Assembly: GCA_025832235.1 (NCBI GenBank)
Contig: GCA_025832235.1_3649.1
Source of the DNA: a phage
Direction: 5' to 3' (one strand)
Length of the DNA stretch: 64,000 nt
Part shown: positions 4,565 to 64,000 of the stretch, one piece after another
How the letters are laid out: every line of letters begins with the position of its first letter
Numbering within the stretch: the stretch's first letter is position 1
Program-made: the position numbers and the translations under genes
Notes under the pieces: generated by a model
What the model was told of the DNA's origin: nothing
The model's database searches: none
Seen by the model: the letters and a program-made list of their open reading frames with translations, nothing else

Positions 4565-5278
4565 ATGCTGAATACTAAATTAATTGACAACCTGGAAAAA
4601 CTGTCCCAACCTGAAAACTACCTTTGGTCTGCCAACTGGGTGGAAAACTGGAACCGTGTGGCAGCTAAAGTGAAAAAATCATACACACCGTTCGAATTAC
4701 AGCTTAGCTTCATTGAGGAAGAGTTCAATGAAGTTTTGGAAGAGCTGGAAAAAGGGGATGGTGGAGATCACCTGCTAAAAGAGGCCTGCGATCTTCACGT
4801 TGTCACAAGTTATGCCGCTTATCTTGTTAATGACAATCACGAAAAGTGGTCAAACCTGTTTGATAATCCACGAGGTCTTAAGTTCAAGATCGGTGAGTTC
4901 TATGATACACTGATCGCTGCGAAAAACACCTCTAAGCAAAGAGCATCCGCTTACCGCTTAGCAGAGTTGTCAACAGCTTTGCTGTTCCAGCTTCGCGGCG
5001 ATGTGTGCGGGATGATGCGTAAGGTTCTCAAATCGAATGACAGCAAGTTTGCACGGGTCAACCATCTACGGTATTCACACGGTGCCAGTGCAGATATGCC
5101 TGCTGAACAACTCATCGAGTTGGAGATTAAAGATCTTGAGCGACGCTTTGATGGTCGATATGAAGGTTTTGTTGCTAAGGAAGAATTCTACAACGGTAAT
5201 AAAGTTATCATATTCCTTGACAGTAAAGGTAAGATCATGAAGCCTTCGAGCTTCAAGGATGTAGCAGAGTATATTTAA
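4565..5278 (+). CDS. hypothetical protein, possible MazG-like NTP pyrophosphohydrolase N-domain
   Basis: EExxE...E..D pattern (IEEEFNEVLEELEKGD...LLKEACDL); followed by hairpin at about 5284-5300. Confidence 0.4.
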   Translation: MLNTKLIDNLEKLSQPENYLWSANWVENWNRVAAKVKKSYTPFELQLSFIEEEFNEVLEELEKGDGGDHLLKEACDLHVVTSYAAYLVNDNHEKWSNLFDNPRGLKFKIGEFYDTLIAAKNTSKQRASAYRLAELSTALLFQLRGDVCGMMRKVLKSNDSKFARVNHLRYSHGASADMPAEQLIELEIKDLERRFDGRYEGFVAKEEFYNGNKVIIFLDSKGKIMKPSSFKDVAEYI

Positions 5279-7342: not shown

Positions 7343-7840
7343 ATGAAACTTGATAAAAATGTTCAACGAAAAGCTTTCTTGGATCTTATTGGCTGGGCAG
7401 AGGGAACAACAACCCACCCTGCCACCAAATGTGGAGGATACGATGTTGTAGCATACGGGATGGACGGAAAACCTGAAATCTTTACAGATTTTTCCACGCA
7501 CCCTTTTGCAAACGGTCGCCCTGGTAAAGTGTTTAACTCAAAAGGGCAAAGAACTACAGCCTGCGGTAAATATCAATTTCTTGTCAAATACTGGGAACAC
7601 TACAAAAAACAGCTTAAGTTGCCGGATTTTGGACCAGATAGTCAGGATAAGTGGGCGATCCAATTGATCAGGGAACGTAAAGCACTTGAAGATATAGATA
7701 ACGGTCATATTAAATCTGCTATACGTAAGACCTCAAATATTTGGGCTTCGTTCCCATACAACAAGTACGACCAAAATCCAAAAACCATTGACAAGTTGCT
7801 TAAGAAATTTGTAGAGTTTGGAGGTGTTGTTCTGGATTAA
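7343..7840 (+). CDS. lambda R-type endolysin (lytic transglycosylase, GH104)
   Basis: near-colinear with lambda R as recalled: QRKAFLD...GW.EGT...GYDV...FTD.S.HP...TA.G.YQ...W..Y.KQL.L.DF.P.SQD..A.Q.I.ER.AL..ID.G.I..AI...SNIWAS.P. Confidence 0.85.
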   Translation: MKLDKNVQRKAFLDLIGWAEGTTTHPATKCGGYDVVAYGMDGKPEIFTDFSTHPFANGRPGKVFNSKGQRTTACGKYQFLVKYWEHYKKQLKLPDFGPDSQDKWAIQLIRERKALEDIDNGHIKSAIRKTSNIWASFPYNKYDQNPKTIDKLLKKFVEFGGVVLD

Positions 7841-41723: not shown

Positions 41724-42423
41724 CACACAATATTAGCTGCCCGGCTAAAGTGCTGGAAGCACCTATAACACATCTTTCAACTAAATTTCCTACCACCACA
41801 ATCACTTACCTCCCATACATGACTGTTTGCTTGTTTAGTGAGCAGTCATGCCTTGACATTCTTGCCTATCCTGATAAAATTAAGTTCTTCTCTTTTCTTT
41901 TACCGAGTAATTCGGGTTTTCTGTTCTCTTCGGTTTGAAGGGGTATGGAGATACACCTGAGTGAACAGGGTGAACAACCGAACCATTGGCTATGGCATTA
42001 GCATGGCGAAGCGGACGGGTGACGAAAGAGGGGCCGGAGGACACCAGTCACTGCCATATGATATATGGGTGATAACCTGAAGAGTCTGAATAAGTGTTTA
42101 AGTACCAGTCAGAGGAAAAGGTGAATGGTAGCCGAAGGGGGAGGGGGGTTTCTTGTATCTTTAATTTGTATATTATGTATACACTTGTAAACCAATTTCA
42201 TCTGAATCTGTTTACCACACAAAGTGGATAGAGACAAATATTACCTATTAAACTTGAATTATTTATAGAAAATACCACAACACCACTTAAGTCTTTGATT
42301 TTACACACAAATCTTACAGATATTCAACCTCCATATTTAACATACCTGTAACATATTCCATACTCTACCTGTCTGATCAATCTACCCAACCACATCCTTC
42401 ATATTTTCCCTGTCTGTACCACC

Positions 42424-42635
42424 CCTGCCCCGCCGGGAGTCCCGTCATATCTGGCTTTCCAGCAAATATCACACCCACAAATATCATTGCCTGAAGAGGG
42501 TTTCATCCCATAATACATGCCTTACCTGAAGAGCGCTTCATACACCACGTAAATTTTTTAATTGACCTGCAATTTTCCCGTCATGACCCCCTGCCCCGCC
42601 GGAGAGGTTGGCTTTTCCCACACAGACCTGAAGAG
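42424..42635. repeat. imperfect ~110-bp direct repeat pair plus four CCTGAAGAG copies
   Basis: CCTGCCCCGCCGG at 42424 and 42588; CCTGAAGAG at 42076, 42490, 42525, 42627. Confidence 0.6.
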
Positions 42636-43213
42636 TCAGCCAGAAATATCTGAACAGGCCCAATTCTACCACGATTTTGACCTGACCTACAGGAGTGCTG
42701 CCAGGCGGACGAAATGGGAATACTTCTCATTCTTATAACAATTCTCAAATATCAAGGCAGTGAGGCAAATTAATAGGCTAGGCCGTTCACACAGTGGCAC
42801 AACATTTGCAATCTATTTTGTGTGGGGGAATGAGAATACATATCATTGTGAGAACCATTATCATTACGGGCAATTTAACATAATACCCATTATGCGCACC
42901 ACTGGCGATACATACAGGGATTGATAACATGAGTTACTGTTTACGCATATAACAATTATATTTATTACTATTTGTGTGGGATATAGTTAGCAGCCGATAG
43001 ATTAGATATTGACCTGCGGACTTCTGACCGTCTAGACGTCTAAACGCCCACACAGCAAGGGTTATACATACATCGCTGAATGTAAACAGGGCCGCAAAAA
43101 TGCTACCATACCAGTTTGTAAATTTTCAATGCAGCACTTGACAAAGAGGAGAAAAACTTGTCTGACACCTTATACACTTTCGATACAATAACGACTGTTA
43201 TTATTTCATGTTT

Positions 43214-43300
43214 CACTGTTCACGTATAGATTGTTCCCGCATAGACTGTTTACGCCTGGATAGTTTACACCTTGACAGTTTACGCATAGATGATAAGCCA
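43214..43300. repeat. iteron-like tandem series of 15-16 bp repeats
   Basis: TAGAtTGTTcCCGC / TAGAcTGTTTACGC / TAGTTTACAC / GACAGTTTACGC in tandem. Confidence 0.6.
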
Positions 43301-43544
43301 TGCCATTCGTTTGCATGAAAACAATTAGCAAGTTAACAATTAACAAGTTAATAATATATGACATAATATAAAAGCAGGGCAACTATTATTAGATCTATAG
43401 TTGCCTTGCTTATTATGTCATGATTAACTGAATATAAGGCAACTATGATCTGATTAATAGATTGCAGACAAACTATCACGGGGGTGATGGTTACTGCTTT
43501 TATATTATGTCGCGACTCCGTCGCGCCATGCCATTCGTTTGCAT
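43297..43544. repeat. 20-bp perfect direct repeat GCCATGCCATTCGTTTGCAT flanking a nested palindrome cluster
   Basis: copies at 43297-43316 and 43525-43544; between them 18-bp perfect inverted repeat GACATAATATAAAAGCAG (43360-43377 / 43494-43511) enclosing GGCAACTAT/ATAGTTGCC palindromes. Confidence 0.65.
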
Positions 43545-44156
43545 AGTTGCCTTATTGTTACAGGTAAAACAATTACATTGTTAACTATTTCTTATCTTTC
43601 TCTTAGTCATCTAATGATTCCAGTCAGTATAGTTATGTGCAGTAAACATTAGACGACTAAAGATTTCTCTGATTATAGTAACCTATCGTGACAATTTCGA
43701 ACTGTTTACGAAAAATGTTGACACCTGGGCAGGTTTATGTTATGCAGTTTGTACGAATAATTATTTTGTACAGGTATTGACTATTCCGTTATTCTGTGGT
43801 TGGAATAAATACTTTGCAGGCTATAGAATGGTGATCGTACGTGGATTCTGAGATCTGTCGGCTATAGTTACACCCGATTTTTCACGTAGGACACGCTTTT
43901 TGGTTTGTGTAAGTGTATGACTTATAAGGGTTTTTAATTGTTGACAGTATACTGAAGATGTGCATCAGGTTAAATTTTGTGCAATAGCTGCATTACGTGC
44001 AATTTTGGGAGAGAAAACGGGTAAAAATAGCACCGCTACCACACAATGAAAGGTTATGCAATAGCTATTTTACATGTATATTTGTACAGTGTGCGGGATT
44101 GATGGCTCGTCAATTATTCCACTTGTCAGGTAGGGCCGTTTATGGTAGGAAAAGAG

Positions 44157-44184
44157 CAAACAAAAAGAAAGGGGCCTAAGCCCC
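44157..44184 (-). terminator. rho-independent terminator ending the minus-strand block
   Basis: minus strand GGGGC-ttag-GCCCC then TTTCTTTTTGTTTG. Confidence 0.6.
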
Positions 44185-44198
44185 TTGATAATGTTGTA

Positions 44199-44462
44199 TT
44201 ATTTGTTGCTCATCCAGTTTTCCCAAGCTGCCTGATAATCTGCCTCACTGCGGCGGATCTCTTCTTGTTCTTCAAGCCGGATCTCTTCTTCCAGGTACCC
44301 AAGGATGTCGGATTTTTTGGTCTGGCGTAACATCCAATCATCTTTTTTACGAGTAAAGATCTTGTACGCTTTCTCGCAAACCTCTTTTTTACTACCTTTT
44401 TGTACTTCAAGAACTTTGTAGGCCATGTACTGAACTAGTTTGAGCTGATCAAGACGTTTCAT
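44199..44462 (-). CDS. hypothetical protein
   Basis: AGAGGT RBS; 5' UTR hairpin GGGCC-AAAA-GGCCC upstream. Confidence 0.5.
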   Translation of the reverse strand: MKRLDQLKLVQYMAYKVLEVQKGSKKEVCEKAYKIFTRKKDDWMLRQTKKSDILGYLEEEIRLEEQEEIRRSEADYQAAWENWMSNK

Positions 44463-44522
44463 GATGTTTACCTCTTTATGCGGTTCTGATTAGTGGGCCT
44501 TTTGGCCCGTGTCATTATCTTA

Positions 44523-44795
44523 TTACTTATGGCGGCAGAATTCAAGCGTTTTTAATTGATAATCTTCCTCAGCCTGGAGTACGACCGCCTCGATCATTTC
44601 GTTGGCATTGTTAAAGCCATAACCTTTAGCGAAATCATCCGCGCCACCTTCGTGATCATGTTCTGCGTTCATCGCTTCCACAAAATGGAATTCAAGATTA
44701 TTGAGGTAAGGGCTTGATGTTCCGTCCTCTTTTTCGATGAGATTCCAAATAGCATTAAAACGTGATTCGACTTCTTGATTAATCCAGCTTGACAT
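44523..44795 (-). CDS. hypothetical acidic protein
   Basis: AGAGGAAA RBS; upstream hairpin and TTGACA-17-TAACAT promoter (44849-44877). Confidence 0.5.
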   Translation of the reverse strand: MSSWINQEVESRFNAIWNLIEKEDGTSSPYLNNLEFHFVEAMNAEHDHEGGADDFAKGYGFNNANEMIEAVVLQAEEDYQLKTLEFCRHK

Positions 44796-45005
44796 GATGT
44801 TTTCCTCTCTTCTGGTTGTTGTGTGGGCACTTTTGCCCCTTCAAGATAATGTTACCCCACCCCCTGGCAGATGTCAACGGTTTTTATAGTTCTTATATGA
44901 CAGGCAGGCCCGGTGATTGTCTCCACCCGTCGCCAGGTGCCTGCCGTGTAATAAGTATAACAAAAAACAGGACCATAGCAAGCCCTGTTTTGTAGTTTAT
45001 AAATA

Positions 45006-45197
45006 TTATATTTTTTCGCCTATGTAGTCCGGTCGGTTTTTCTCTGTCATGCGCTTTAGCAATTCTTGCATGTTACTTATGGCTTGTAGCGTATCCTCTT
45101 CCAGACTTGAATCAACATAATCAGGATCGTCTATAACCTTTCTATGATTATGATAACGCAGTACCGCCAATACCTTTCTAACTTGTTCGGTATTCAT
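45006..45197 (-). CDS. hypothetical protein
   Basis: ORF. Confidence 0.4.
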   Translation of the reverse strand: MNTEQVRKVLAVLRYHNHRKVIDDPDYVDSSLEEDTLQAISNMQELLKRMTEKNRPDYIGEKI

Positions 45198-45346
45198 TTT
45201 TATCGCTCTTTAAAACAAGGTGCCAACCGTTTCCAATAGATCACTGACTATCAGGACAATACTGATCAGCACATACCTAACCATAAAGGGAAAGATCGCC
45301 AACATTGCCGCCACGATTCCCATGGTGATAATTATCTTTCTCATGA

Positions 45347-45631
45347 TTAACGGGTCACGTAAGTTTTCCCGTTTACGGTTATCTGCAGATCCTCCAGGTC
45401 TGGATCTTCTTTAAGGTCGCGAGCAAGCTCACCGCACCGGATACCCTCGAATCCGTAGTACTCTGTTGTACCGTCATTAAAAGTTTTAGCGGCAAGGCAT
45501 AAGCGATAAGTAACCCCGATTTGATTGACGGCATGAATATCCGTTAGATTAACCTCTTTTGCCAGCTCTTTAGCCATTACAGGCGCATTAAGTCCAACAA
45601 CCAGGGCAACCACTGCGATCATCTTTTTCAT
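45347..45631 (-). CDS. secreted small protein with cleavable signal peptide
   Basis: MKKMIAVVALVVGLNAPVMA then mature domain; AGAGGA RBS. Confidence 0.5.
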   Translation of the reverse strand: MKKMIAVVALVVGLNAPVMAKELAKEVNLTDIHAVNQIGVTYRLCLAAKTFNDGTTEYYGFEGIRCGELARDLKEDPDLEDLQITVNGKTYVTR

Positions 45632-45722
45632 TGTGTCTATCCTCTTTCTGCTACGTTTAAGGCGGCGGTAACCGCCTGTTTAAGCTTTGTTGGTTAATTT
45701 TCGGGTATCGGTATAAATTAAA

Positions 45723-45938
45723 CTATGCTGTACGCTCAACTATAACAACGGTTTGGGGGATCTCCCCCTCCACCACTAGTAAGGCCTTTTTCTGCGTGAT
45801 AGATATCTTTACCCGTTGCAGCGTGGCGGTGAAGTCTTTCATTTCGTCACGCGGTGTTTTAGTGCAGTACCAGATCTCAGGCTTGCCGATCTGTAAGTTG
45901 CGTAAAAATTCTGTTTTGCCTGTTTTGTTAGTGATCAT
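45723..45938 (-). CDS. hypothetical protein
   Basis: GGTGAGG RBS. Confidence 0.45.
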   Translation of the reverse strand: MITNKTGKTEFLRNLQIGKPEIWYCTKTPRDEMKDFTATLQRVKISITQKKALLVVEGEIPQTVVIVERTA

Positions 45939-45947
45939 TTGTCAACC

Positions 45948-46052
45948 TCACCCGATACCGTTGGAAGACAAGATCACATTAGCCATGGTTGCAATCAGGC
46001 CAATACCCAGGGCAATAACCAGGATCACCGCATCAATTAATTTCTGTTTCAT
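45948..46052 (-). CDS. 34-aa membrane peptide
   Basis: AGAGGAAAACAAA then ATG; IDAVILVIALGIGLIATMANVIL; below ORF-track cutoff. Confidence 0.4.
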   Translation of the reverse strand: MKQKLIDAVILVIALGIGLIATMANVILSSNGIG

Positions 46053-46142
46053 TTTGTTTTCCTCTTCTTGTTCCAGGTGGCGGACCATTCCACCGCCTTA
46101 TGTATTATGCTTTGTAAGATGGTTGTTTGTTTTCAAACTATT

Positions 46143-46322
46143 TTAACGATAATCATCGTACGCTTTATTAACCTGGCGAATATAACATTCAAAAGCCAGA
46201 TCAATAGATTTATATTCACGGATATACTCACCATAGGAAACCACATACATTTCTATAGCTTCCTCATATGCGAGGAGAATAGAATCCAAGCCTACGATCT
46301 CAGTCTTTGCAATAATAGCCAT
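46143..46322 (-). CDS. 59-aa hypothetical protein
   Basis: AAAGAGGATAAAAATC then ATG; below ORF-track cutoff. Confidence 0.45.
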   Translation of the reverse strand: MAIIAKTEIVGLDSILLAYEEAIEMYVVSYGEYIREYKSIDLAFECYIRQVNKAYDDYR

Positions 46323-46393
46323 GATTTTTATCCTCTTTGTGGTTGGTGGGGCTTGCCCCTTTGATTTATATACTACAGTCTTATATGGTCATG

Positions 46394-46627
46394 TCAACTA
46401 TTTTCAAAAAATTTTTCTGCTGTAATATTTTTCCCGGTAGGGTTCGCTACTTTCAAAATTCTATCATGCACCGGACGCCCAAAAGAATAAGCGCCGTACA
46501 CAGTAAACCAATAATCGCCGTCAGGCTGTACTATTACCGCCGCATATGGTACGCCTTTTTCGTTTTTGCTGACAAAATAGATCACATTGCCATTAATAAC
46601 CTCAGCGCGTTTAATTTGTTCCATCAT
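46394..46627 (-). CDS. hypothetical protein
   Basis: AGAGAGGT RBS; upstream hairpin GGGGCC-GAAAA-GGCCCC. Confidence 0.5.
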   Translation of the reverse strand: MMEQIKRAEVINGNVIYFVSKNEKGVPYAAVIVQPDGDYWFTVYGAYSFGRPVHDRILKVANPTGKNITAEKFFENS

Positions 46628-46681
46628 GATGATTTACCTCTCTTTATTTTCATAATTGGGGCCTTTTCGGCCCCGCCAGGT

Positions 46682-46966
46682 TTATTTATTGATAGCGTGC
46701 AGCGGGAAAGCTACGCCAGGTTGATAGATAACCTTTACAACCTCATCAGGACAAAAGAAATTGCAGAACTCACCGCAATAGGCCTCATCCTCTTTTAATT
46801 CTTCATCAGCATACTCAAAAAAGTAGTCGATGCTTGGATAATCCTGCCCTGGGTTATAGTCAACCATTGTCAAGACCAGTTCAAGATCGTTGCGCAGGAT
46901 ATGCATACCCGCTTTTAAGTATTTTGCTTCCATTTCTACTACATCGCCAGCGGTAACAATAGCCAT
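46682..46966 (-). CDS. hypothetical acidic protein
   Basis: start moved to ATG 46966 after AGGAG. Confidence 0.45.
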   Translation of the reverse strand: MAIVTAGDVVEMEAKYLKAGMHILRNDLELVLTMVDYNPGQDYPSIDYFFEYADEELKEDEAYCGEFCNFFCPDEVVKVIYQPGVAFPLHAINK

Positions 46967-47188
46967 AGTTTTAACTCCTGTTTCTGTTAATGATTGGGGG
47001 CCGCCCCCTGACACGTACTATTATCCATATTGTAGGGCTTGATGCAAGTACTTCTTTAAAAAAATTTTTAAGCGCCTTGGAGGCCGTTGTAACGCCAAAA
47101 TAATAAAGGCCATGCGGTTGCATGGCCTTTATGTGATTATATCGCTGTAGGCCCTGCTAGGGGCCTTATTTTGCATCATTTGCCGGAA

Positions 47189-47494
47189 CTATACAGAGAA
47201 AACATCGTTCACAATAGCGATCACAATGCCGCCCACCTTGTCACGGTCAACAATGCACAAATCACCATAGATCATGTGGTAGTCTGGATGATCTTTCACG
47301 GAATAGTCAATGAGCGTTTTCTTGTCGTCCAGCTTTGTAACTTCCATTCTCATAACGATATGAGAATCATCAAAGGCATTATTCCGAAAAGTCATAGCCT
47401 GACCACCAGGGCACCCAGTGATCTCCACTTCCACACCATCTACGATCTGACCATCAAAGAAATAAAGATTATTAGCCTGGATAAACATGATCAT
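47189..47494 (-). CDS. hypothetical protein
   Basis: AAGGAG RBS; 45-bp repeat copy upstream. Confidence 0.5.
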   Translation of the reverse strand: MIMFIQANNLYFFDGQIVDGVEVEITGCPGGQAMTFRNNAFDDSHIVMRMEVTKLDDKKTLIDYSVKDHPDYHMIYGDLCIVDRDKVGGIVIAIVNDVFSV

Positions 47495-47534
47495 TACTCC
47501 TTGTTAACTGCGTGGTATTTTAACAGGGTTTAAA

Positions 47535-47579
47535 TTTACTTTATTGATGGCCCTAGAGTCAAGGCCATCTAAAAATAAA
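47535..47579 (-). repeat. 45-bp repeat copy 1 (promoter-like element with hairpin)
   Basis: minus strand TTTATTTTTAGATGGCCTTGACTCTAGGGCCATCAATAAAGTAAA; TTGACT sits in the loop of GATGGCC/GGCCATC stem. Confidence 0.55.
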
Positions 47580-47581
47580 TT

Positions 47582-47782
47582 TTACAGGCCTACAATCTCT
47601 TTGATTCGTTTAACCGCCGCCTCAGCGCCTTGGGGGTAAAAATTATGGTAACCAATCACGCGAGTGATACTAATCGCCGTTTGATGATCTTCATAGTCGC
47701 CCTTGAAGATTTCTTGACCGTCAATCAGCACGGCAATTTTTTCTTCTTTTTTGAAGTTAATAACGCGGATATTGTTGCTCAT
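47582..47782 (-). CDS. hypothetical protein
   Basis: ORF; upstream hairpin GGGGA-aaca-TCCCC. Confidence 0.45.
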   Translation of the reverse strand: MSNNIRVINFKKEEKIAVLIDGQEIFKGDYEDHQTAISITRVIGYHNFYPQGAEAAVKRIKEIVGL

Positions 47783-47884
47783 TTTTGTTTCTCCTTTCTG
47801 GTTTTTGTGTTGGTGGGGATGTTTCCCCGTTGATTGTTATTATCCATATTCAGGACCGGATTGCAACACCCCGGAAGAAAAATT

Positions 47885-47920
47885 TTTTGAAAAAAGTTAG
47901 GCCCCCAGGGATCGGGGGCC
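47885..47920 (-). terminator. rho-independent terminator
   Basis: minus strand GGCCCCC-gatccct-GGGGGCC then TAACTTTTTTC. Confidence 0.6.
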
Positions 47921-47924
47921 GTTA

Positions 47925-48044
47925 TCAGTTACTTACAGAGATAAAATACATCCCTACGCCTAACAATATTTCAAGGGCGATGATCTCAAGCCATACCATA
48001 ACACGGCGCACCTTATCGGTGCGGGGCTTATCCTTGGGTGTCAT
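47925..48044 (-). CDS. 39-aa membrane peptide
   Basis: GGAGGGAAGGGGGAGACG then ATG; MVWLEIIALEILLGVGMYFI; below ORF-track cutoff. Confidence 0.45.
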   Translation of the reverse strand: MTPKDKPRTDKVRRVMVWLEIIALEILLGVGMYFISVSN

Positions 48045-48286
48045 CGTCTCCCCCTTCCCTCCTGGTAGTAGTGACGTGGTTTACAATGGCCCCCAGGAGT
48101 ACCATCACCACGCACATCACAAGAAAAATTATCTCCGCTGTTGTTCGATCCATTGTTATAAAATTCCTCAAGATCAGGCCTGAAAATAAAGCGTTCGTTA
48201 TTGAATCCGTCACGCCAGGCGGCTGGCTTCAAATCTTCACTAAAGGGATTAATTAACGTGGCATTATTTAAACGGTTGGCCCACAT
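48041..48286 (-). CDS. hypothetical protein (frame uncertain)
   Basis: ATG after GAGAGGAA; overlaps the peptide gene; alternative frame 48028-48153 encodes a TM peptide. Confidence 0.3.
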   Translation of the reverse strand: MWANRLNNATLINPFSEDLKPAAWRDGFNNERFIFRPDLEEFYNNGSNNSGDNFSCDVRGDGTPGGHCKPRHYYQEGRGRR

Positions 48287-48635
48287 ATTTTCTATTCCTC
48301 TCAAATAGGCGATCCGCCTCAGTTAAACATATCTCATGGGCTTGATCTCTGGTTTTAGCTTCATCGAAAACTTGTTGTGCAAGGCTGCAACGCAAGGAGA
48401 CCGGAAGATCACTATAATAGGCGTTGACAAACGTTTGAGCGTCGTACAGGTCTGAAAATACTTTACCCTTTCTATTATTCCCCTTGTCAACAATTGCAAG
48501 GATAACCAATACAATAGTTGCAACCACCCCCAGGAAAATAGATATAATAAACCATAAAAAGGCGGATCTACCCATCTTGCCAGCGATCCAGGCGTTAAAC
48601 AAGGCAACCAATACAGCCAAAATAATAAATTCCAT
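48264..48635 (-). CDS. membrane protein (two TM helices)
   Basis: start moved to ATG 48635 after AGAGGT; MEFIILAVLVALFNAWIA and FLWFIISIFLGVVATIVLVILAIV. Confidence 0.5.
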   Translation of the reverse strand: MEFIILAVLVALFNAWIAGKMGRSAFLWFIISIFLGVVATIVLVILAIVDKGNNRKGKVFSDLYDAQTFVNAYYSDLPVSLRCSLAQQVFDEAKTRDQAHEICLTEADRLFERNRKYVGQPFK

Positions 48636-48699
48636 TCTATGTACCTCTTTTGCAGTTCTGTTTAACAATAAGGCGGCAAATATGCCGCCTGTTACCTGA

Positions 48700-49080
48700 T
48701 TAAAAATTATCGCCGTAAATCTTTCCGCTTTCTGCCCACACCACCACGCGGGGCATACTATCCCACACGTCTTGTTTTAGATTGAGCGCGTGCAATTCTT
48801 CGGTGGTGCCCATACCTGGCACGGGCTGATTGTATACTGCAAAACGACCACCCGCATAGTCATAGGCCAGAGTTAAATCACACTGGATCATCTTTTTGAT
48901 CATGGCATTAAGCATGGCATTAGCCGCATACTGATCACGTTTTAAAGGCAACTCTTTGATTAGTTTGCGATAGTTTTCAATGTGATCGCACACTGTTTCA
49001 CGTGGAAGATCTTTCATATCCTCGCGAAAGGTAACCAGGTTAAACATGACGGTGTCAATAGCTTTAGTAGTGTTTTTCAT
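48700..49080 (-). CDS. hypothetical protein
   Basis: start moved to ATG 49080 after AAGAGGAAAAC; upstream hairpin GGGGGCAA-gacg-TTGCCCCC. Confidence 0.5.
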   Translation of the reverse strand: MKNTTKAIDTVMFNLVTFREDMKDLPRETVCDHIENYRKLIKELPLKRDQYAANAMLNAMIKKMIQCDLTLAYDYAGGRFAVYNQPVPGMGTTEELHALNLKQDVWDSMPRVVVWAESGKIYGDNF

Positions 49081-49171
49081 GATGTTTTCCTCTTTGTTTT
49101 GTGTGGGGGGCAAACGTCTTGCCCCCTTGAGTTTTAATATAGCAGGTTTTTAGGTTATTGCAACACTTTAT

Positions 49172-49795
49172 TTATGAAAAAGTCATCTCGCCATATTCAT
49201 CCACATCAAACCGCCAATCATTGGCCTCGATAAGGCCGATCAGGTTTTCGGTAGTGAATTGTTCAAGATAGGCTTGCTCCAGGTCTACGTAAACCTTGCG
49301 GGATAGCTCCCGTACCGTCTCGGTGATCAGCTCTTCCAGCTCTTCAACTTTATCCTCTTGCTTGGTGGTCAGGTCTAGCCAATTGGTATCGATGCACCCG
49401 CCTATTGTGTTTTCGTGGTGATAATGGCTAAACGGGATACGCTCAACGCTTGCGGATAGCTCGCCATCGTGCATTGTGCCGAACAAGTGACGAATTGAGC
49501 GGAATTTAGTCAAAGACTTGACTTTACGCAAGAATTTTTCTAAGTTTACATTTTCAGCGCTAATTGACGCGCCGTCACCCTGGCACCAAAAGCCGGACCA
49601 ATGTACATCTGTATCTTCAAGCCCGTACTCTGGAAAAACATATTCTTTATAGTATTCAATTACACTTTCTGCAAAAAAGTTATCCCCGCTGTGTTCTTCT
49701 CTTTCGCGGACCATTTCAACGGCTTTTTCTTTTTGTTCGTCGGTCAGCACGTCGAAAGATAAATTGTAACCTGTGGTAATGTTAACGGTGGTCAT
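49172..49795 (-). CDS. hypothetical protein
   Basis: AGGAGA RBS; upstream hairpin and promoter. Confidence 0.5.
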   Translation of the reverse strand: MTTVNITTGYNLSFDVLTDEQKEKAVEMVREREEHSGDNFFAESVIEYYKEYVFPEYGLEDTDVHWSGFWCQGDGASISAENVNLEKFLRKVKSLTKFRSIRHLFGTMHDGELSASVERIPFSHYHHENTIGGCIDTNWLDLTTKQEDKVEELEELITETVRELSRKVYVDLEQAYLEQFTTENLIGLIEANDWRFDVDEYGEMTFS

Positions 49796-49852
49796 GATAT
49801 TTTCTCCTATTTTCTTTGTTGGTGGCGGGAAGTTTTCCCGCCTGTGTGTTTA

Positions 49853-49880
49853 AGTATACTTATCGAGATTTACTTGTCAA
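49853..49880 (-). promoter_or_regulatory. sigma70-like promoter
   Basis: minus strand TTGACA, 16 bp spacer, TATACT; followed by hairpin 49824-49842, RBS and ATG 49795. Confidence 0.55.
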
Positions 49881-50130
49881 CACTATTTTTTAAATTATTG
49901 TGGCGCAAAATGTTTAAAATCTCTTCAACGTCATCAACACGGCGGCAATTTTTAAACGCTACCAATTGCCCCATGATTTTAATCACTGGGCGGCCTTGCC
50001 AGTGCCCCTGAAGAAAGCGCGCCTTGACTTTATCGGTGGAACTATCACGCCACCAAATAGCCTTGTTGTTGCAGTAGTAAAAATTATTCAGGATAACATC
50101 AACTTTATCAAAATTTTTTAATTTACGCAT
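49870..50130 (-). CDS. hypothetical basic protein
   Basis: GGAGTAAACGCC then ATG. Confidence 0.5.
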   Translation of the reverse strand: MRKLKNFDKVDVILNNFYYCNNKAIWWRDSSTDKVKARFLQGHWQGRPVIKIMGQLVAFKNCRRVDDVEEILNILRHNNLKNSVDK

Positions 50131-50162
50131 GGCGTTTACTCCTTTCTCTCTTTGATGTGGTT

Positions 50163-50190
50163 AGTATAGCTAACCTGTTGACGATGTCAA
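50163..50190 (-). promoter_or_regulatory. sigma70-like promoter
   Basis: minus strand TTGACA, 16 bp spacer, TATACT. Confidence 0.6.
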
Positions 50191-50320
50191 TGATATTTTT
50201 AACGCCATAAAACGGCCCTGGGCGATGTTTTCAGGTTAAAGGGGGCGATTGCATAGGTGGGGGCCTTTTTGGCACTTACAGGGCCAACCAGGGGCGCTAT
50301 TCGTAGGATAGAAATAAAAA

Positions 50321-50350
50321 GCCCCGCACAATGGCGGGGCGTTGGTTGTT
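50321..50350 (-). terminator. rho-independent terminator
   Basis: minus strand GCCCCGC-cattgt-GCGGGGC then TTTTTATTTC. Confidence 0.6.
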
Positions 50351-50546
50351 ATTTGTCTTTATGGCGGTACCGTTCCGCCTGTCGTTCACGTTCCAAAAGC
50401 AGGCCCGGCAGTTTACGATCATAATGATTCCGCCAGATCTTCCCAAATCTTTTTGGCTTATTCAGTTTATTGTTCCGCTGGCGGCGTTCCGGCAGCTCTT
50501 CGGAATCATGAGATCGCTTTAAAATCTTTTCAAAATTAATCTTCAT
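50349..50546 (-). CDS. hypothetical basic protein
   Basis: start moved to ATG 50546 after AAGGGGGGAATAT. Confidence 0.45.
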   Translation of the reverse strand: MKINFEKILKRSHDSEELPERRQRNNKLNKPKRFGKIWRNHYDRKLPGLLLERERQAERYRHKDK

Positions 50547-50883
50547 ATATTCCCCCCTTGCTAACTTCAATATTGGCCTGAATAGCCCGGATACGGCGCT
50601 TTATAACTTCCTGATCTGTGTGATCGTATCCCCAAAAGTCTACAATTTTTGCGCCCCCAGCTTCCAGGCGGTACAGTGTTTCCTGCATTTTGTAAGCCGG
50701 GATCGGTCGCGGTGTTACTTGGTCACCTTCTTTATTTTTATACTTTATAATATAATCTTCATTATCGTTGAATGTCCAAAATGGATATTCTGCAAGGGCG
50801 GTACTTTCCTTTTTATCCTGGATCTTGTTTACAATTAAAGCCGTAGCAATAGCGCCAATAATAAAACTAGCCCCGCTGATCAT
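50536..50883 (-). CDS. membrane-anchored protein
   Basis: start moved to ATG 50883 after AAAGGAGAAAG; N-terminal TM ISGASFIIGAIATALIV. Confidence 0.5.
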   Translation of the reverse strand: MISGASFIIGAIATALIVNKIQDKKESTALAEYPFWTFNDNEDYIIKYKNKEGDQVTPRPIPAYKMQETLYRLEAGGAKIVDFWGYDHTDQEVIKRRIRAIQANIEVSKGGIYED

Positions 50884-50958
50884 GTACTTTCTCCTTTCAT
50901 TGTGTTGATAAACTATCTTTATAGATGGCCCTGCTACCAGGACCACCGAAAAACCAGC

Positions 50959-51204
50959 TTATTTGACGATACCGACAAAACAGATCCCGCCTTCCCCTAT
51001 ATAGGCGATATCGGTAATTTGATAATTTGTCAAGATCCGCGTGTTCAGATCATTAATAAAATCGGTCATCGCGTTGGTGTAGTTGTCTTCCGTGTCTAAG
51101 GCATAATCCCAGGTGTAAACCTTTTTACGTCCGAAGCCTTTTACCATGATACGGGCGCTTTTGGTGTTGGTAGGGGCATAATATTTGGTAATTAGTGCGG
51201 CCAT
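50959..51204 (-). CDS. hypothetical protein
   Basis: ORF; 45-bp repeat copy upstream. Confidence 0.45.
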   Translation of the reverse strand: MAALITKYYAPTNTKSARIMVKGFGRKKVYTWDYALDTEDNYTNAMTDFINDLNTRILTNYQITDIAYIGEGGICFVGIVK

Positions 51205-51247
51205 TGTTTTAACTCCTCTGTATTAGTTCAGTGTTAACAGTGTAAAG

Positions 51248-51292
51248 TTTACTTTATTGATGGCCCTGGAGTCAAGGCCATCTAAAAATAAA
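51248..51292 (-). repeat. 45-bp repeat copy 2
   Basis: identical to copy 3; one mismatch to copy 1. Confidence 0.55.
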
Positions 51293-51293
51293 T

Positions 51294-51635
51294 TTACTCG
51301 TTTTCTTCCAGTTCTGCAAGCTCTTCTTTCACTTCTTCAAGCTCTGTTTGCAATTCCTGGTATTCTTCATCGTCCTCAATATCCAGGCTGTCGATGTAGT
51401 CGCTAAATCCGCAGCGGTAAGCGATAGGATCTAACTCCTTGAGGATACGCGACGGAAGAAAAGAAATGTTTCCGATCATAATTTCGCCATAGATCTCGTC
51501 TAACCATTCATCATAGTTTTCGTCGTACTTGTCCTCGTCGATTTCAAAATTATCGATCTTGTTCTCAAGGTCTGCGATCTGTTTTTTCAGCGCGGCGATC
51601 TGCATGGCTTTTTCTGTGGCGGTCATAGTAGTCAT
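51294..51635 (-). CDS. acidic coiled-coil protein
   Basis: EE/DD-rich; promoter and hairpin upstream. Confidence 0.5.
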   Translation of the reverse strand: MTTMTATEKAMQIAALKKQIADLENKIDNFEIDEDKYDENYDEWLDEIYGEIMIGNISFLPSRILKELDPIAYRCGFSDYIDSLDIEDDEEYQELQTELEEVKEELAELEENE

Positions 51636-51686
51636 AGTGTTTTCTCCTTTTGTGTGCTTTGGGAAGTTTTCCCGTTTACGTGTTTA

Positions 51687-51714
51687 AGTATACTGATTTA
51701 AGTTAGCTTGTCAA
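51687..51714 (-). promoter_or_regulatory. sigma70-like promoter
   Basis: minus strand TTGACA, 16 bp spacer, TATACT; -10 region GTATACTTAAACAC nearly identical to promoter at 49853-49880. Confidence 0.55.
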
Positions 51715-51834
51715 TTAAAAGTTTAAGAAAAATTTTGCTACACCGTTGGCACTACCCATCAACATTTGCGCCAGGATGTAACCAATGATGCAAACGATAA
51801 TAGTTACCTTTGTGTGCTGGCGTGTAGTACTCAT
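51715..51834 (-). CDS. 39-aa membrane peptide
   Basis: AAGGGGG RBS; TIIVCIIGYILAQMLMG; below ORF-track cutoff. Confidence 0.4.
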   Translation of the reverse strand: MSTTRQHTKVTIIVCIIGYILAQMLMGSANGVAKFFLNF

Positions 51835-51867
51835 CTTTAAGCCCCCTTTCCGCTCAACTGTGGTTAG

Positions 51868-51912
51868 TTTACTTTATTGATGGCCCTGGAGTCAAGGCCA
51901 TCTAAAAATAAA
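51868..51912 (-). repeat. 45-bp repeat copy 3
   Basis: TTTACTTTATTGATGGCCCTGGAGTCAAGGCCATCTAAAAATAAA on plus strand. Confidence 0.55.
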
Positions 51913-51913
51913 C

Positions 51914-52309
51914 TCAGTAAGTTTTCAGTACTTTCCCGTCCAACCTGTCTAACTGAATCTCAATAGCTGCAGAAAACCTATTGTAAACCACATCGCCCAG
52001 GGAGTCCAGCCAATCTATGACGTTATACACCTGCTCTTTATTCTTGCAAGTCCGGATCCGTTTCATTACGTAAGACGGATCAATATTAGCGCTCTCGTTG
52101 TTGTGGTCATGCGCCTGGCCTGCTGCGCTAGTTATAGATTTTACAACCACCTGAAAGGGCTTTAAGGTGCCTTTTGCGTTCATCTCACGCGCTTTCGCGG
52201 CGCGGTTGTTGTATGTTACACAACGGCGGCAAATGTTGACCAAATGCATATCAATAATTTTTTCATCGTTTGCCAGTTCGTTCATGATGCGGCGTACGTT
52301 CTTATTCAT
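51914..52309 (-). CDS. hypothetical protein
   Basis: ORF; upstream hairpin GGCGGGAA-tgt-TTCCCGCC. Confidence 0.5.
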   Translation of the reverse strand: MNKNVRRIMNELANDEKIIDMHLVNICRRCVTYNNRAAKAREMNAKGTLKPFQVVVKSITSAAGQAHDHNNESANIDPSYVMKRIRTCKNKEQVYNVIDWLDSLGDVVYNRFSAAIEIQLDRLDGKVLKTY

Positions 52310-52405
52310 GATCTTTTTTCCTTTGTGTTGGCGGGAAACATTCCCGCCTTTTGTGTATAGTTTACTTGAATTTTGCAGCGTGTCAATAATTTTTTTTTTT
52401 TTTTT

Positions 52406-52804
52406 TTATTCGTGGGCACATGTTACAATGTGCTTTTTATATCCCAGGCGGTCAGCAAGTGCCGACAAAAACTCTTCTTCGTAGATCCAGCCGTCGGCAG
52501 TGATCCCCATAGCATTTAATGCGCTCTCAAGTGCTGCGTTAGCTTTATCATAACCGTGACCGCTCGCCTTGCCGCCAGTATAGCCGTACTTATTGTTCTT
52601 GTTGTCGTGTATCCAAAAAACGCAGTAGTGAGTGTTCCCACTGGCGGCGGCATAATACCGGATCTCAGCTACTTCGTGCAAATTATTGTCATCGTCCAGG
52701 CCCACCAGATTATAAGCCTTATAAAATCCACGATCACGGCGGCAGTTCTTGACATCAGAAAAAGAAAAGTCCGCATTGTCAAAATTAAAGGTAGTGGTTT
52801 TCAT
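52406..52804 (-). CDS. hypothetical protein
   Basis: AAGAGGA RBS; promoter TTGACA-17-TACACT (52837-52865). Confidence 0.5.
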   Translation of the reverse strand: MKTTTFNFDNADFSFSDVKNCRRDRGFYKAYNLVGLDDDNNLHEVAEIRYYAAASGNTHYCVFWIHDNKNNKYGYTGGKASGHGYDKANAALESALNAMGITADGWIYEEEFLSALADRLGYKKHIVTCAHE

Positions 52805-52868
52805 GATTTTATCCTCTTAGTGTTTTTTGTGCTTTTAGTGTATTTTGTGTCAGGCTATATGTCAATAC

Positions 52869-53066
52869 TTATTTTTTATTAAACCAGTGGTTGATCTGGC
52901 CTTTTGTCAGGGCGCAACGATTAAGCTGTTGCAGGGTATAGCTATGACCGCGACGAAATTTATAAAGGCCTTGCCCGTTGTTGATGGTTACATCCGCCCG
53001 GCAAATCACTTGATTGGTGACCACCTGGCGAGTGTTGCGACGTGCTTTGATTCCGTATGCGTTCAT
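52869..53066 (-). CDS. hypothetical basic protein
   Basis: ORF. Confidence 0.45.
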   Translation of the reverse strand: MNAYGIKARRNTRQVVTNQVICRADVTINNGQGLYKFRRGHSYTLQQLNRCALTKGQINHWFNKK

Positions 53067-53144
53067 GATTTCTTGTCCTCTCTGTTAATTAGTGGGGTGT
53101 TGTTCACCTTGCGAGAATAAGAATAACAAGAACTGTCCGAGCTG

Positions 53145-53327
53145 TCAACCATTAGTTAAAATTATTTTTTGGGTAGAATTCTCCAGCCGCCGCCCCTGCC
53201 AGGTTAACCACCGTTTTTCGTACTCTTCTTTATGTTCCAACGCTCCCGCCATAGCCTTTTCAACCAGGGCGATAGCCTCAGCGTCATTAATCGCTACATT
53301 TCCCAGGTGAGTAGCATTACCTTTCAT
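53145..53327 (-). CDS. hypothetical protein
   Basis: GAAGAGGAGG RBS; first gene of the small-gene block. Confidence 0.5.
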   Translation of the reverse strand: MKGNATHLGNVAINDAEAIALVEKAMAGALEHKEEYEKRWLTWQGRRLENSTQKIILTNG

Positions 53328-61101: not shown

Positions 61102-61430
61102 GCTTCCTCGTCGTCTAAGTAATCATCAAGAGAGGTGAAGATTTCACCGAAGTATTCTAAGATTTCTAGCTCACGTGTGGTGCAGCAAACATAATCTCCT
61201 TGGTCGTCCTTAATAGTGGCCTCTTTACCCAGAATATCTACTTCAAGTTCATCGTTCAACAGGACGGCCCCTGTGTAAACTTTGTCAGCTGTGCAGTCCC
61301 GAAAAGCAGAGTCCTTCTCCAGATAGTCTGGCTTAACCTTGGCTTTAATTCGTTGATATTGTTTGGTCATTGCTGTGGTCCCCTTTCGTTTTGATAGGGC
61401 CATTATAGTAGGCCCTATCACTGTTGTCAA
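61098..61430 (-). CDS. small acidic protein, family C
   Basis: SAFRDCT...KDDQGDYVCCT, paralogous to 61434-61688. Confidence 0.45.
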   Translation of the reverse strand: MTTVIGPTIMALSKRKGTTAMTKQYQRIKAKVKPDYLEKDSAFRDCTADKVYTGAVLLNDELEVDILGKEATIKDDQGDYVCCTTRELEILEYFGEIFTSLDDYLDDEEA

Positions 61431-63282: not shown

Positions 63283-63558
63283 CAATAGTTCAGGTAGGTC
63301 GTTAAGCTACCCCGCACCATTACGTGCATAGCCATACGTTTTCACGTAGGATCGGACCATCTCATATTCCTATGATAAGCAACCACAGGAATCCTCCCAT
63401 TTCGACCGCACTTGCTGGTCTACTTCCTTTCGGAATGGCCTCTGAGCGTTCGCTCTTTTGAGCGCTTCGTTGCGGATTACCTTGCCATAAGGTTTAGGCT
63501 TCCCGCAGTTAAAGAGGTTATTCGACATAGATTACTCTATGAAGCCACAATGTTATTT
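63283..63558 (-). ncRNA. group I self-splicing intron in DNA polymerase gene (no internal ORF)
   Basis: 5' exon ends CAU, intron ends G; elements ACUGCGGGAAGCC (P), GUAAUCCGCAACG (Q), GUAGACCAGC (R) and GAGAUGGUCCG (S); length restores frame. Confidence 0.7.
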
Positions 63559-64000
63559 ATGGTAATAAATAATACGACGAACACCTTCATCGTACCACCC
63601 ACGCTTCACCATCTGGCGGTGCATGAGTATTCCAACTAAGTCACACAGCGATGCACCACCATTTTGTTGGTATGCATTAAGTAAAGAGTGTTTAGATCTG
63701 GTCCAGATAGCATGACCATCAAAAGAGTAGATAAACTTCTTACCCGTTGCTTCCCAGAATTTCTCCAGATCTTCTTTACGCCCCTTAAGACCAGGGTTGG
63801 CATCCCAGAGTGCATCGATTACCCTTTGTCCCAACTCTGGAGAGATGTCCAGCATATCTGCAACTTTATCTTTTTGTGCCCCATACATAACCCCATACGT
63901 GATAGGTTTACCGTCGTTACGGGAAATCTCCTTGCCTGCTACAGAAGAGTAAGCTTTGGCGTTATTACAGTTACCGCACACTGCCACTTTACCATTCCTT
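63559..64000 (-). CDS. family A DNA polymerase, 5' exon (partial, continues beyond window end)
   Basis: motif B-like region ...AKAYSSV...YGVMYGAQ... and NAYQQNGGASLCDL; ends ...VRRIIYYH at the splice site. Confidence 0.7.

Follow-up and report, generated by a model that had tools for sequence, protein, structure and literature searches.

A block of small minus-strand genes at positions 44199-53327 of a 64,000-nucleotide stretch of phage DNA (contig GCA_025832235.1_3649.1 of GenBank assembly GCA_025832235.1; the whole stretch is referred to below as the window) is punctuated by short GC-rich hairpins, and this feature is real, strongly non-random and evolutionarily maintained. Judged by their architecture, the hairpins belong to cassettes of the promoter-early stem-loop (PeSL) type, all of whose structural features are matched, and they represent a new lineage rather than a new kind of element. 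PeSLs are known from RB49/phi1, PST/T4 and nt-1/KVP40 (Arbiol et al. 2010, PMC2839356; Comeau et al. 2014, PMC4122927), and the range described so far is that of the T4-like phages (PMC4122927). The best explanation of their role, which we put forward tentatively and at slightly less than an even chance, is that the stem-loop would serve as a 5'-terminal clamp against decay initiated by RppH and RNase E and, in addition, as a substrate for the shuffling of gene cassettes.

The region 44000-53500 matches approximately 70 Vequintavirus genomes, including navn, Gotham and rV5, at 92-94 % identity, and on the strength of this match the window is that of a Vequintavirus, an rV5-like coliphage, with the minus-strand block as the counterpart of rV5 open reading frames (ORFs) 165-197. 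The published analysis of rV5 gives sigma70 promoters and Rho-independent terminators and the hairpins go unmentioned (PMC3606486). We found no account in the literature of such elements in rV5-like phages, and neither a transcriptome nor a start-site map for Vequintavirus.

Abundance and placement of the hairpins

In a strict scan, which required a perfect stem of at least 5 bp with at least four G-C pairs and a loop of 3-9 nt, a hairpin was present in 14 of the 22 intergenic gaps of the block, compared with 1.76±1.14 in dinucleotide shuffles (maximum 5 in 500). Hairpin density in the block was 8.4 per kb in the gaps and 1.3 per kb in coding sequence, and 28 of the 68 strict hairpins in the window fall in the block. 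Thirteen block hairpins are free of terminator features: ten are placed between a sigma70-type promoter and the Shine-Dalgarno (SD) sequence, and three (45660-45677, 46658-46674 and 48671-48690) follow a stop codon and have no recognisable promoter. An automatic scan of the window for the promoter-to-hairpin pattern placed it exclusively within 44.2-52.4 kb; the same scan found none among the minus-strand genes at 53.4-64 kb and only two terminator-like cases in the 43-kb plus-strand part.

The original prediction, made from the sequence of this stretch, had claimed that most gaps of the block hold such a hairpin, at least 11 in all, placed between promoter and ribosome-binding site and never followed by a U tract. 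Direct reading of the minus strand bears out the presence of the hairpins at the stated places. The proposed order holds for the ten promoter-linked hairpins but not for the remaining three, one of which, GGGGCC-GAAAA-GGCCCC at 46658-46674, had been quoted as the example. Similarly, the U tract is absent from 12 of the 13, which have an A/C-rich 3' flank, the exception being 48671-48690 with its weak T-rich tail, TATTGTT. The ten promoter-hairpin units, all on the minus strand, are as follows; energies and z-scores refer to folding of the modelled 5' untranslated region (UTR).

52330..52386 (-), cassette before ATG 52309: TTGACA 52381-52386, 16-nt spacer, TAAACT 52359-52364, 10 nt, hairpin 52330-52348, GGCGGGAA-tgt-TTCCCGCC; -14.6 kcal/mol, z = -3.44
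51661..51714 (-), cassette before ATG 51635: TTGACA 51709-51714, 16-nt spacer, TATACT 51687-51692, 13 nt, weak hairpin 51661-51673, GGGAA-aac-TTCCC; -5.5 kcal/mol, z = -0.47; kept in 9/9 orthologues
49824..49880 (-), cassette before ATG 49795: TTGACA 49875-49880, 16-nt spacer, TATACT 49853-49858, 10 nt, hairpin 49824-49842, GGCGGGAA-aac-TTCCCGCC; z = -3.37
49106..49163 (-), cassette before ATG 49080: TTGCAA 49158-49163, 16-nt spacer, TATATT 49136-49141, 9 nt, hairpin 49106-49126, GGGGGCAA-gacgt-TTGCCCCC; z = -3.24
47815..47866 (-), cassette before ATG 47782: TTGCAA 47861-47866, 16-nt spacer, GATAAT 47839-47844, 10 nt, hairpin 47815-47828, GGGGA-aaca-TCCCC; z = -3.20; directly behind terminator 47900-47920
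46996..47047 (-), cassette before ATG 46966: TTGCAT 47042-47047, 16-nt spacer, GATAAT 47020-47025, 11 nt, hairpin 46996-47008, GGGGG-cgg-CCCCC; directly behind terminator 47103-47132
46348..46397 (-), cassette before ATG 46322: TTGACA 46392-46397, 16-nt spacer, TAGTAT 46370-46375, 10 nt, short hairpin 46348-46359, GGGG-caag-CCCC
46076..46137 (-), cassette before ATG 46052: -10-like CATAAT 46104-46109, 6 nt, hairpin 46076-46097, GGCGGTGGA-atgg-TCCGCCACC; -12.5 kcal/mol, z = -1.81; -35 doubtful (TTGAAA, 21-nt spacing)
44825..44877 (-), cassette before ATG 44795: TTGACA 44872-44877, 17-nt spacer, TAACAT 44849-44854, 10 nt, hairpin 44825-44838, GGGCA-aaag-TGCCC; directly behind terminator 44964-44991
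44495..44545 (-), cassette before ATG 44462: weak promoter TTGAAT 44540-44545, 17-nt spacer, TAAGAT 44517-44522, 8 nt, hairpin 44495-44508, GGGCC-aaaa-GGCCC; retained in 10/10 orthologues

Eight of the ten predicted promoters score 9-11 of 12 with a spacer of 16-17 nt, the weaker ones being those of the 44462 and 46052 units; the Gotham record has a predicted promoter at the latter.

Position relative to the promoter and folding of the leader

The hairpin base lies 8, 10, 6, 10, 11, 10, 9, 10, 13 and 10 nt from the end of the -10 hexamer in the ten units, taken in order from 44462 to 52309. This spacing of 9.7±1.8 nt has a standard deviation of 1.8 compared with 7.6 when hairpins are placed at random between the -10 and the SD sequence (P < 1e-5). 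The distance from hairpin to ATG is looser (20-32 nt, standard deviation 3.7), and an SD sequence is present in each unit. In Vequintavirus, Stephanstirmvirinae, Seunavirus, Certrevirus and UPEC06 taken together (69 unique units), the hairpin base follows the -10 at 10.3±1.2 nt, and 36 of the units have exactly 10. Because the spacing after the -10 is fixed at about 10 nt, the stem-loop is likely to be part of the 5' end of the transcript. If the start is taken as the 7th nucleotide after the -10 hexamer, which is an assumed rule, the unpaired segment preceding the stem is predicted to be 0-7 nt long (mode 4), and we infer that the hairpin would make up the first 15-25 nt or so of each early mRNA, with about 2-5 unpaired nucleotides ahead of it.

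When the ten 5' UTRs were modelled, the hairpin was present in the minimum-energy fold of every one and the SD sequence and AUG were mostly unpaired; the fold z-scores were -3.4, -3.4, -3.2, -3.2, -2.3, -1.8, -1.7, -0.5, -0.5 and +0.6. Between the hairpin and the ATG, A makes up 58 % of the leader, C 20 % and U 7.7 %, the leaders of plus-strand genes having a U content of 27 %. Upstream of the promoters lies an A/T-rich tract, exemplified by A18 at 52390-52407, 'aaaaatttttttaaagaag' before 47047 and 'aatttaaaaaatagtg' before 49880. The A18 run (minus strand) is found directly upstream of the -35 box of the 52309 cassette, where relatives have a different, shorter sequence, and could represent a variable-length tract similar to an UP element.

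Hairpins outside the ten units and the terminators of the block

The other hairpins of the gaps, and the canonical intrinsic terminators, which have a T tract, are listed below.

45660-45677 (-), intercistronic hairpin AGGCGG-ttaccg-CCGCCT, 28 nt before ATG 45631; no promoter, no U tract
46658-46674 (-), intercistronic hairpin GGGGCC-gaaaa-GGCCCC immediately past the upstream gene's stop codon; no recognisable promoter
48671-48690 (-), intercistronic hairpin AGGCGGCA-tatt-TGCCGCCT, then TATTGTT; may be a weak terminator
51879-51902 (-), 24-nt hairpin GATGGCCTTG-actc-CAGGGCCATC, present in several copies, whose tip holds the -35 box TTGACT
51259-51282 (-), further copy of the -35 hairpin
47546-47569 (-), further copy of the -35 hairpin
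50924-50947 (-), degenerate copy of the -35 hairpin
44169-44186 (-), canonical terminator
44964-44991 (-), canonical terminator
47103-47132 (-), canonical terminator
47900-47920 (-), canonical terminator
50321-50340 (-), canonical terminator

Four gaps thus bear the hairpin that encloses the -35 box, which corresponds to the PeSL subclass over the -35, and a U·G pair (sense orientation) is conserved in every copy and relative. In two further promoters, at 61392-61420 and 50159-50175 (minus strand), the -10 hexamer lies in the loop of a hairpin (TGATAGGGCC-tactataat-GGCCCTATCA and GGTTAG-ctata-CTAACC, respectively), and these constitute another PeSL-like positional class.

Like intrinsic terminators, the 13 hairpins are intergenic, with a GC-rich stem of 5-8 bp and a short loop, but unlike them they lack a U tract, the sequences 3' of the stem being ACCAAC, ACACAAC, CACACAAAAC and similar (except for the weak TATTGTT at 48671-48690). 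The view taken in the original prediction that these are not intrinsic terminators therefore stands, the more so as canonical terminators exist separately in the block. Of the four promoters that directly follow a canonical terminator, three (behind 47900-47920, 47103-47132 and 44964-44991) still have a hairpin, and hence the hairpin is not there to halt transcription arriving from upstream.

These observations bear directly on the proposal made by the authors who described PeSLs, namely that, besides taking part in modular shuffling, the stem-loops attenuate or terminate upstream transcription, each small gene being driven mainly by its own promoter (PMC2839356). The stem-loop of PeSL211/210 cut lacZ expression about as much as rrnB T1 (PMC2839356), a hairpin occurs in nearly every gap whatever its position relative to the promoter (promoterless, embedded with the -35 or in the spacer), and the T-rich tail at 48671-48690 would fit such a role. 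However, A/C-rich sequence takes the place of a U tract after 12 of the 13 hairpins, which makes a terminator role unlikely for the class downstream of the -10; a hairpin after a promoter would dampen that promoter's own transcripts; the hairpins persist behind canonical terminators; and a tight lock to the -10 is not expected of a terminator. We regard attenuation as unlikely here.

The T-rich complement of the A-rich start region of the promoter follows the hairpins on the plus strand, which raises the question of whether the hairpins terminate antisense transcription. Four are flagged by a lenient scan of that strand, among them GGCGGGAAACATTCCCGCC-TTTTGTGTAT at 52330-52348, but a run of at least four T directly after the stem occurs in only one, and this reading was rejected because a proper T run is found at that single site. 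In addition, non-T sequence (GTGTCATT, GCCAGGTT, TGACACGT) comes after the promoterless hairpins and several of the rest, the AT-rich promoter brings the T-richness with it as a by-product, and the G·U bias described below favours RNA of the minus strand. Antisense termination is thus very improbable.

Conservation of pairing among relatives

Orthologous sites were compared in ten Vequintavirus relatives, using phage records from GenBank, as a search of IMG/VR with a 207-aa protein gave only two close loci. A hairpin with a free energy (dG) of -4.5 kcal/mol or lower, a threshold that is lenient for the strongest hairpins, forms at 121 of 122 orthologous sites, and the identical hairpin is found at only 67. 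At 46996-47008, for example, GGGGG/CCCCC is replaced by GGGGGG/GCCTCC, with a G·U pair, and by GGAGG/CCTCC. None of the ten orthologues of 47815-47828 is identical and all ten fold, three of them with the stem extended at the expense of the loop to GGGGAG-aca-CTCCCC. At 49106-49126, B9-1, Phage 206 and S127 have a rewritten inner stem with dG still near -15, a U·G pair of 46076-46097 is improved to U-A in S127, and 46348-46359 is longer in relatives (GGGGC-aacaa-GCCCC), with Gotham as the only loss. In the orthologue alignments, 50 % of loop columns, 20 % of stem columns and 24 % of flank columns are variable.

The column-wise statistics were replaced by refolding of each sequence, a strand-symmetric hairpin finder and an alignment of the hairpin family, for which 37 GGCGG-type units from several phages were aligned with MAFFT. 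In this alignment 87.5 % of cells pair, compared with 79.8±1.1 % in shuffles, and the covariation score is 0.274, compared with 0.146±0.016 in shuffles (0 of 500 reach the observed value) and at most 0.152 with slid partners. Pairs switch between G-C and C-G (23/12), between A-U and G-C (26/6) and among G-C, G·U and A-U (17/10/4). Covariation of stem positions, which the original prediction proposed to look for in relatives, is seen. Among 134 unique hairpins read in the mRNA sense there are 42 internal G·U and 15 A·C pairs (22 and 12 when counted by crude family), and this excess points to minus-strand RNA, though the copies are not independent.

Two loops are exactly inverted with the stem unchanged, GAAAA to TTTTC at 46658-46674 in Phage 206 and TGT to ACA at 52330-52348 in a relative from IMG/VR. 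Such inversions are what a template-switch or hairpin-flip mutation leaves behind. In 112 of the 134 hairpins the 5' arm is the G-rich one, as in PeSLs, while the canonical terminators of the block are often C-first; we found no explanation for this chirality.

Possible recognition by a protein

The variability of stems and loops also bears on whether the hairpins are sites recognised by a protein, such as a boxB-like antitermination site, the target of another RNA-binding protein or nuclease, or a palindromic DNA operator covering +3 to +25 through which early promoters would be turned off. Operators such as lacO do sit just downstream of +1, near-identical copies (GTAGGGCGGCAATGGTGCCGCTCAC) occur in Stephanstirmvirinae and UPEC06, phAPEC8 carries the motif as a 'PHIRE promoter', and one loop in the window is GAAAA, as in lambda boxB. 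However, the stems are heterogeneous within the phage (GGCGGGAA, GGGGGCAA, GGGGA, GGGGG, GGGGC, GGGCA, GGGCC), the loops are of varying length and sequence, with inversions from one orthologue to another, and it is the pairing that covaries while the sequence is not kept. An operator acting purely at the level of DNA fits poorly with the sense-strand G·U bias, and the operator reading was rejected on the heterogeneity of the stems and the covariation of pairing. With no boxA, and no RNA-binding domain among 27 block proteins, recognition of this kind appears quite unlikely.

Antitermination of the boxB type, which the original prediction had offered as one of its readings, is not supported. 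Like the nut sites of lambda and P22, the hairpins are short GC stem-loops downstream of early promoters, and one has the loop GAAAA. Unlike nut sites, they have no conserved loop, undergo loop inversions, lack boxA, number at least ten rather than two and start at about +3 rather than tens of nucleotides downstream. A lambda-type boxB has a conserved 5-bp stem and a GNRA-like pentaloop (GAAAA or GAAGA). Here GAAAA is found in only one of 13 loops, and the loops, 3-6 nt long, differ between units (AAAA, AAAG, CAAG, CGG, AACA, GACGT, AAC, TGT) and change freely or are inverted in orthologues. A search of the window for boxA (CGCTCTTA-like) gave 4 matches against 2.2 expected, a chance-level result, with none of them on the minus strand beside a hairpin. 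Pfam searches of the 27 block proteins, which cover the search for an RNA-binding partner suggested earlier, gave no RNA-binding candidate and no N-like arginine-rich protein, such peptides being hard to detect and the search being confined to the block. The original prediction is thus supported in that the hairpins are not terminators and unsupported on boxB-type antitermination, and it missed the match to PeSLs. Its other suggestion, of RNase-processing and stabilising elements, is plausible and is the one we favour, in the particular form of a stem-loop at the 5' terminus.

Two further candidates were set aside. RNase III sites were rejected because the stems are 4-10 bp and about 20 bp or more of double-stranded RNA is needed. 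Hairpin promoters of the N4 type were dropped because good sigma70 promoters precede the hairpins, whose loops are 3-9 nt of varied sequence; the reported reliance of rV5 on the host polymerase (PMC3606486) also counts against them.

Relationship to PeSLs and signs of cassette exchange

In RB49 and phi1, PeSLs are defined as repeats in hyperplastic regions before ORFans, and five subclasses of stem-loop position are distinguished, including one downstream of the -10 (PMC2839356). The cassettes described here share with them the AT-rich upstream tract, a consensus sigma70 early promoter, a polyG-then-polyC stem-loop, an SD sequence and a start codon, as well as repetition before small ORFans in a hyperplastic region, cassettes that bound indels between close relatives, G·T pairs in the stems, and positional subclasses downstream of the -10 (10 units here), over the -35 (4) and over the -10 (2). 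They differ in lineage, being found in Vequintavirinae and Stephanstirmvirinae and not in T4-like phages, and in that the class downstream of the -10 dominates, at a fixed distance of about 10 nt, whereas the commonest positions in RB49 and phi1 are in the spacer or over the -10.

The same cassette was found in Justusliebigvirus VEcB and muut, Phapecoctavirus phAPEC8, Seunavirus SPLA5a and 4MG, Certrevirus CR8 and the unclassified UPEC06, whose orthologue of the 44462 unit reads TTGAAT-17-TAGAAT followed by GGGCC-gaga-GGCCC. Most hairpins of CR8 fill the 17-nt promoter spacer, for example TTGAC-tcaGGGGCCgaaaGGCCCC-ATAAT, and the hairpin of 46658-46674 itself occupies promoter spacers in both CR8 and SPLA5a. 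In the GenBank record of phAPEC8, the 'putative promoter determined with PHIRE' is the hairpin motif GTAGGGCGGCAATGGTGCCG, directly after a sigma70 promoter found with MEME; the PHIRE features at 5078-5097, 6493-6512, 7343-7362 and 7724-7743 lie exactly on the hairpin motif of the 5' UTR, and the label is probably a mis-annotated stem-loop.

Gene gains and losses between relatives are seen in the block. In V18, the 49795 unit has the upstream half of the 51635 unit with the junction in the common GGGAAAACTTCCC core, a footprint that suggests exchange within the shared core of the hairpin. In rV5 there is an extra gene, ORF166, flanked by a duplicated leader whose start lies immediately behind the hairpin, and a Stephanstirm-type cassette is present in Vequintavirus 241Ecol014PP. 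The genes at 46141-46334 and 46401-46630 are about 92 % identical in Justusliebigvirus, a different subfamily, and the surrounding DNA is unrelated, which therefore suggests recent horizontal exchange of single-gene cassettes.

Such events could also mean that the hairpins act at the level of DNA only, as hot spots of recombination, cruciforms or selfish palindromes that play no part in RNA and are kept up by palindrome-preserving mutation and the spread of cassettes. The V18 crossover within the shared core, the duplicated leader around ORF166 of rV5, the single-gene cassettes with about 92 % identity in the other subfamily and the exact loop inversions are all compatible with this, as are the mini-circles reported for PeSLs (PMC2839356) and the order of G run then C run, which is the same on both strands. 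However, the mRNA-sense excess of G·U over A·C pairs (42 vs 15) is not expected if RNA plays no part, and non-homologous hairpins hold the same position relative to the -10. Moreover, recombination needs homology, yet most hairpins of the phage are unlike each other. An exclusively DNA-level element is, in our estimate, rather improbable.

A proposed 5'-terminal clamp

We rank the clamp first because the position of the hairpin is tied to the promoter and not to a stop codon or ATG, because the hairpins are kept behind terminators, lack a U tract and precede an unstructured, U-poor leader, and because RNase E and RppH need single-stranded 5' ends, a requirement that explains stabilisation by 5' structures (PMC3997798, citing Emory 1992, Bouvet & Belasco 1992 and Arnold 1998). 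The terminal position matters, since an orthogonal stem-loop placed internally does little to obstruct RNase E (PMC11194081). As in the 5' UTRs of E. coli ompA and papA, the T4 gene 32 leader and the CUUCGG hairpins of T4 intergenic regions, a stable stem-loop is predicted to lie a few nucleotides from the 5' end and is followed by an accessible ribosome-binding site, the T4 gene 32 leader and the CUUCGG hairpins being phage precedents cited in PMC8948821. In the established cases the structure works by protecting the mRNA from RppH and from RNase E attack that depends on the 5' end (PMC3997798). There is no sequence relationship to any of these, no tetraloop of the UUCG type is present, and the serial use of the design on at least ten short genes is a further difference.

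Each cassette comprises the A/T-rich upstream tract, a strong predicted sigma70 promoter, the G-run-then-C-run stem-loop, an A/C-rich, U-poor and unstructured leader, and a strong SD sequence before a small ORFan. The terminal stem-loop would keep both RppH and the 5'-monophosphate sensor of RNase E away from the 5' end, and the leader would offer few RNase E sites while keeping the SD sequence open, such that short early mRNAs could be long-lived and efficiently translated whichever gene follows. In read-through or processed transcripts, the hairpins, including the promoterless ones, would mark and protect cistron boundaries, and as repeats they would provide crossover points at which small genes could be gained, lost or swapped.

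Several findings weigh against the clamp. The length of the 5' segment hangs on the +1 rule, and the 5-7 unpaired nucleotides predicted in the 46966 and 51635 units may be too many. Three hairpins are promoterless and four enclose the -35 box, and are therefore not 5'-terminal in primary transcripts, and those of CR8 lie mostly in the promoter spacer; one function shared by every positional class would need to operate on read-through RNA or on DNA. Three hairpins are weak (z = -0.5, -0.5 and +0.6). The stems are barely less variable than the flanks (0.20 vs 0.24 variable columns), the column-wise count of G·U and A·C pairs on the orthologues (7 vs 10) is not decisive, these alignments being blurred by indel shifts, and the loop inversions reveal a palindrome-preserving mutation process that is able to keep stems without selection. 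From the literature, the PeSL authors saw terminator-like activity for one stem-loop in a reporter (PMC2839356), and RppH acts on only about 10 % of E. coli mRNAs (PMC3997798). The promoterless, -35 and spacer hairpins in particular keep alive the readings as attenuator, as processing or 3'-protection element and as DNA-level element.

There is also a small chance that the position-locked hairpin is more than a passive clamp, namely a shared tag by which an RNA-binding factor or a nuclease, encoded by phage or host, decides jointly what becomes of the early mRNAs. Room for a tag is left by near-identical GTAGGGCGGCAAUGGUGCCGCUCAC copies with a conserved internal G·U pair and by the unexplained G-first chirality. 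If true, it could mean stabilisation or translation that is selective in early infection and coordinated destruction at the early-to-middle switch, and would amount to a cis-regulatory code common to Vequintavirinae and Stephanstirmvirinae.

Other features of the window

Pfam gave no significant family for 26 of the 27 small proteins of the block, the sole significant match being a 65-aa protein encoded at 50349-50546 (minus strand) to Phage_1_1 (T7 gp1.1 family, E = 1.6e-11). An Rfam search of the whole window at gathering thresholds found only a group I catalytic intron (RF00028, 64.7 bits, E = 4e-14) at 63333-63568 (minus strand), inside the minus-strand gene block, and no family for the hairpins; a permissive search of the 44199-53327 block gave a single chance-level match (E = 0.2).

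The block adjoins a stretch of about 2 kb without ORFs (42100-44160), between convergent gene blocks, that is dense in short repeats, including cctgaagag (4 copies), ccatgccattcgtttgcat (2 copies) and ccctgccccgccgg (2 copies), and has iteron-like repeats of the ctgtttacgc type near 43200-43300 and 43700. It corresponds to the 'non-coding' box of rV5 and contains the genome end and terminal repeat in Gotham, and may be an origin or packaging region. Elsewhere, overlapping inverted repeats built from ACGGACA/TGTCCGT at 872-952 form five hairpin-capable units within 80 nt.

Significance

PeSL-type cassettes are thus not confined to T4-like phages but occur also in two further large groups of enterobacterial myoviruses, from which many phages serve in therapy and biocontrol. 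The annotation of phAPEC8, in which the hairpin motif carries a promoter label, can be corrected. The arrangement suggests a design rule, in which the base of the hairpin lies about 10 nt after the -10 and is followed by a U-poor A/C leader and then the SD sequence, and this rule could explain the robust expression of dozens of unrelated small early genes and provide a reusable compact expression part. In these genomes, the cassettes mark likely breakpoints of gene-cassette exchange.

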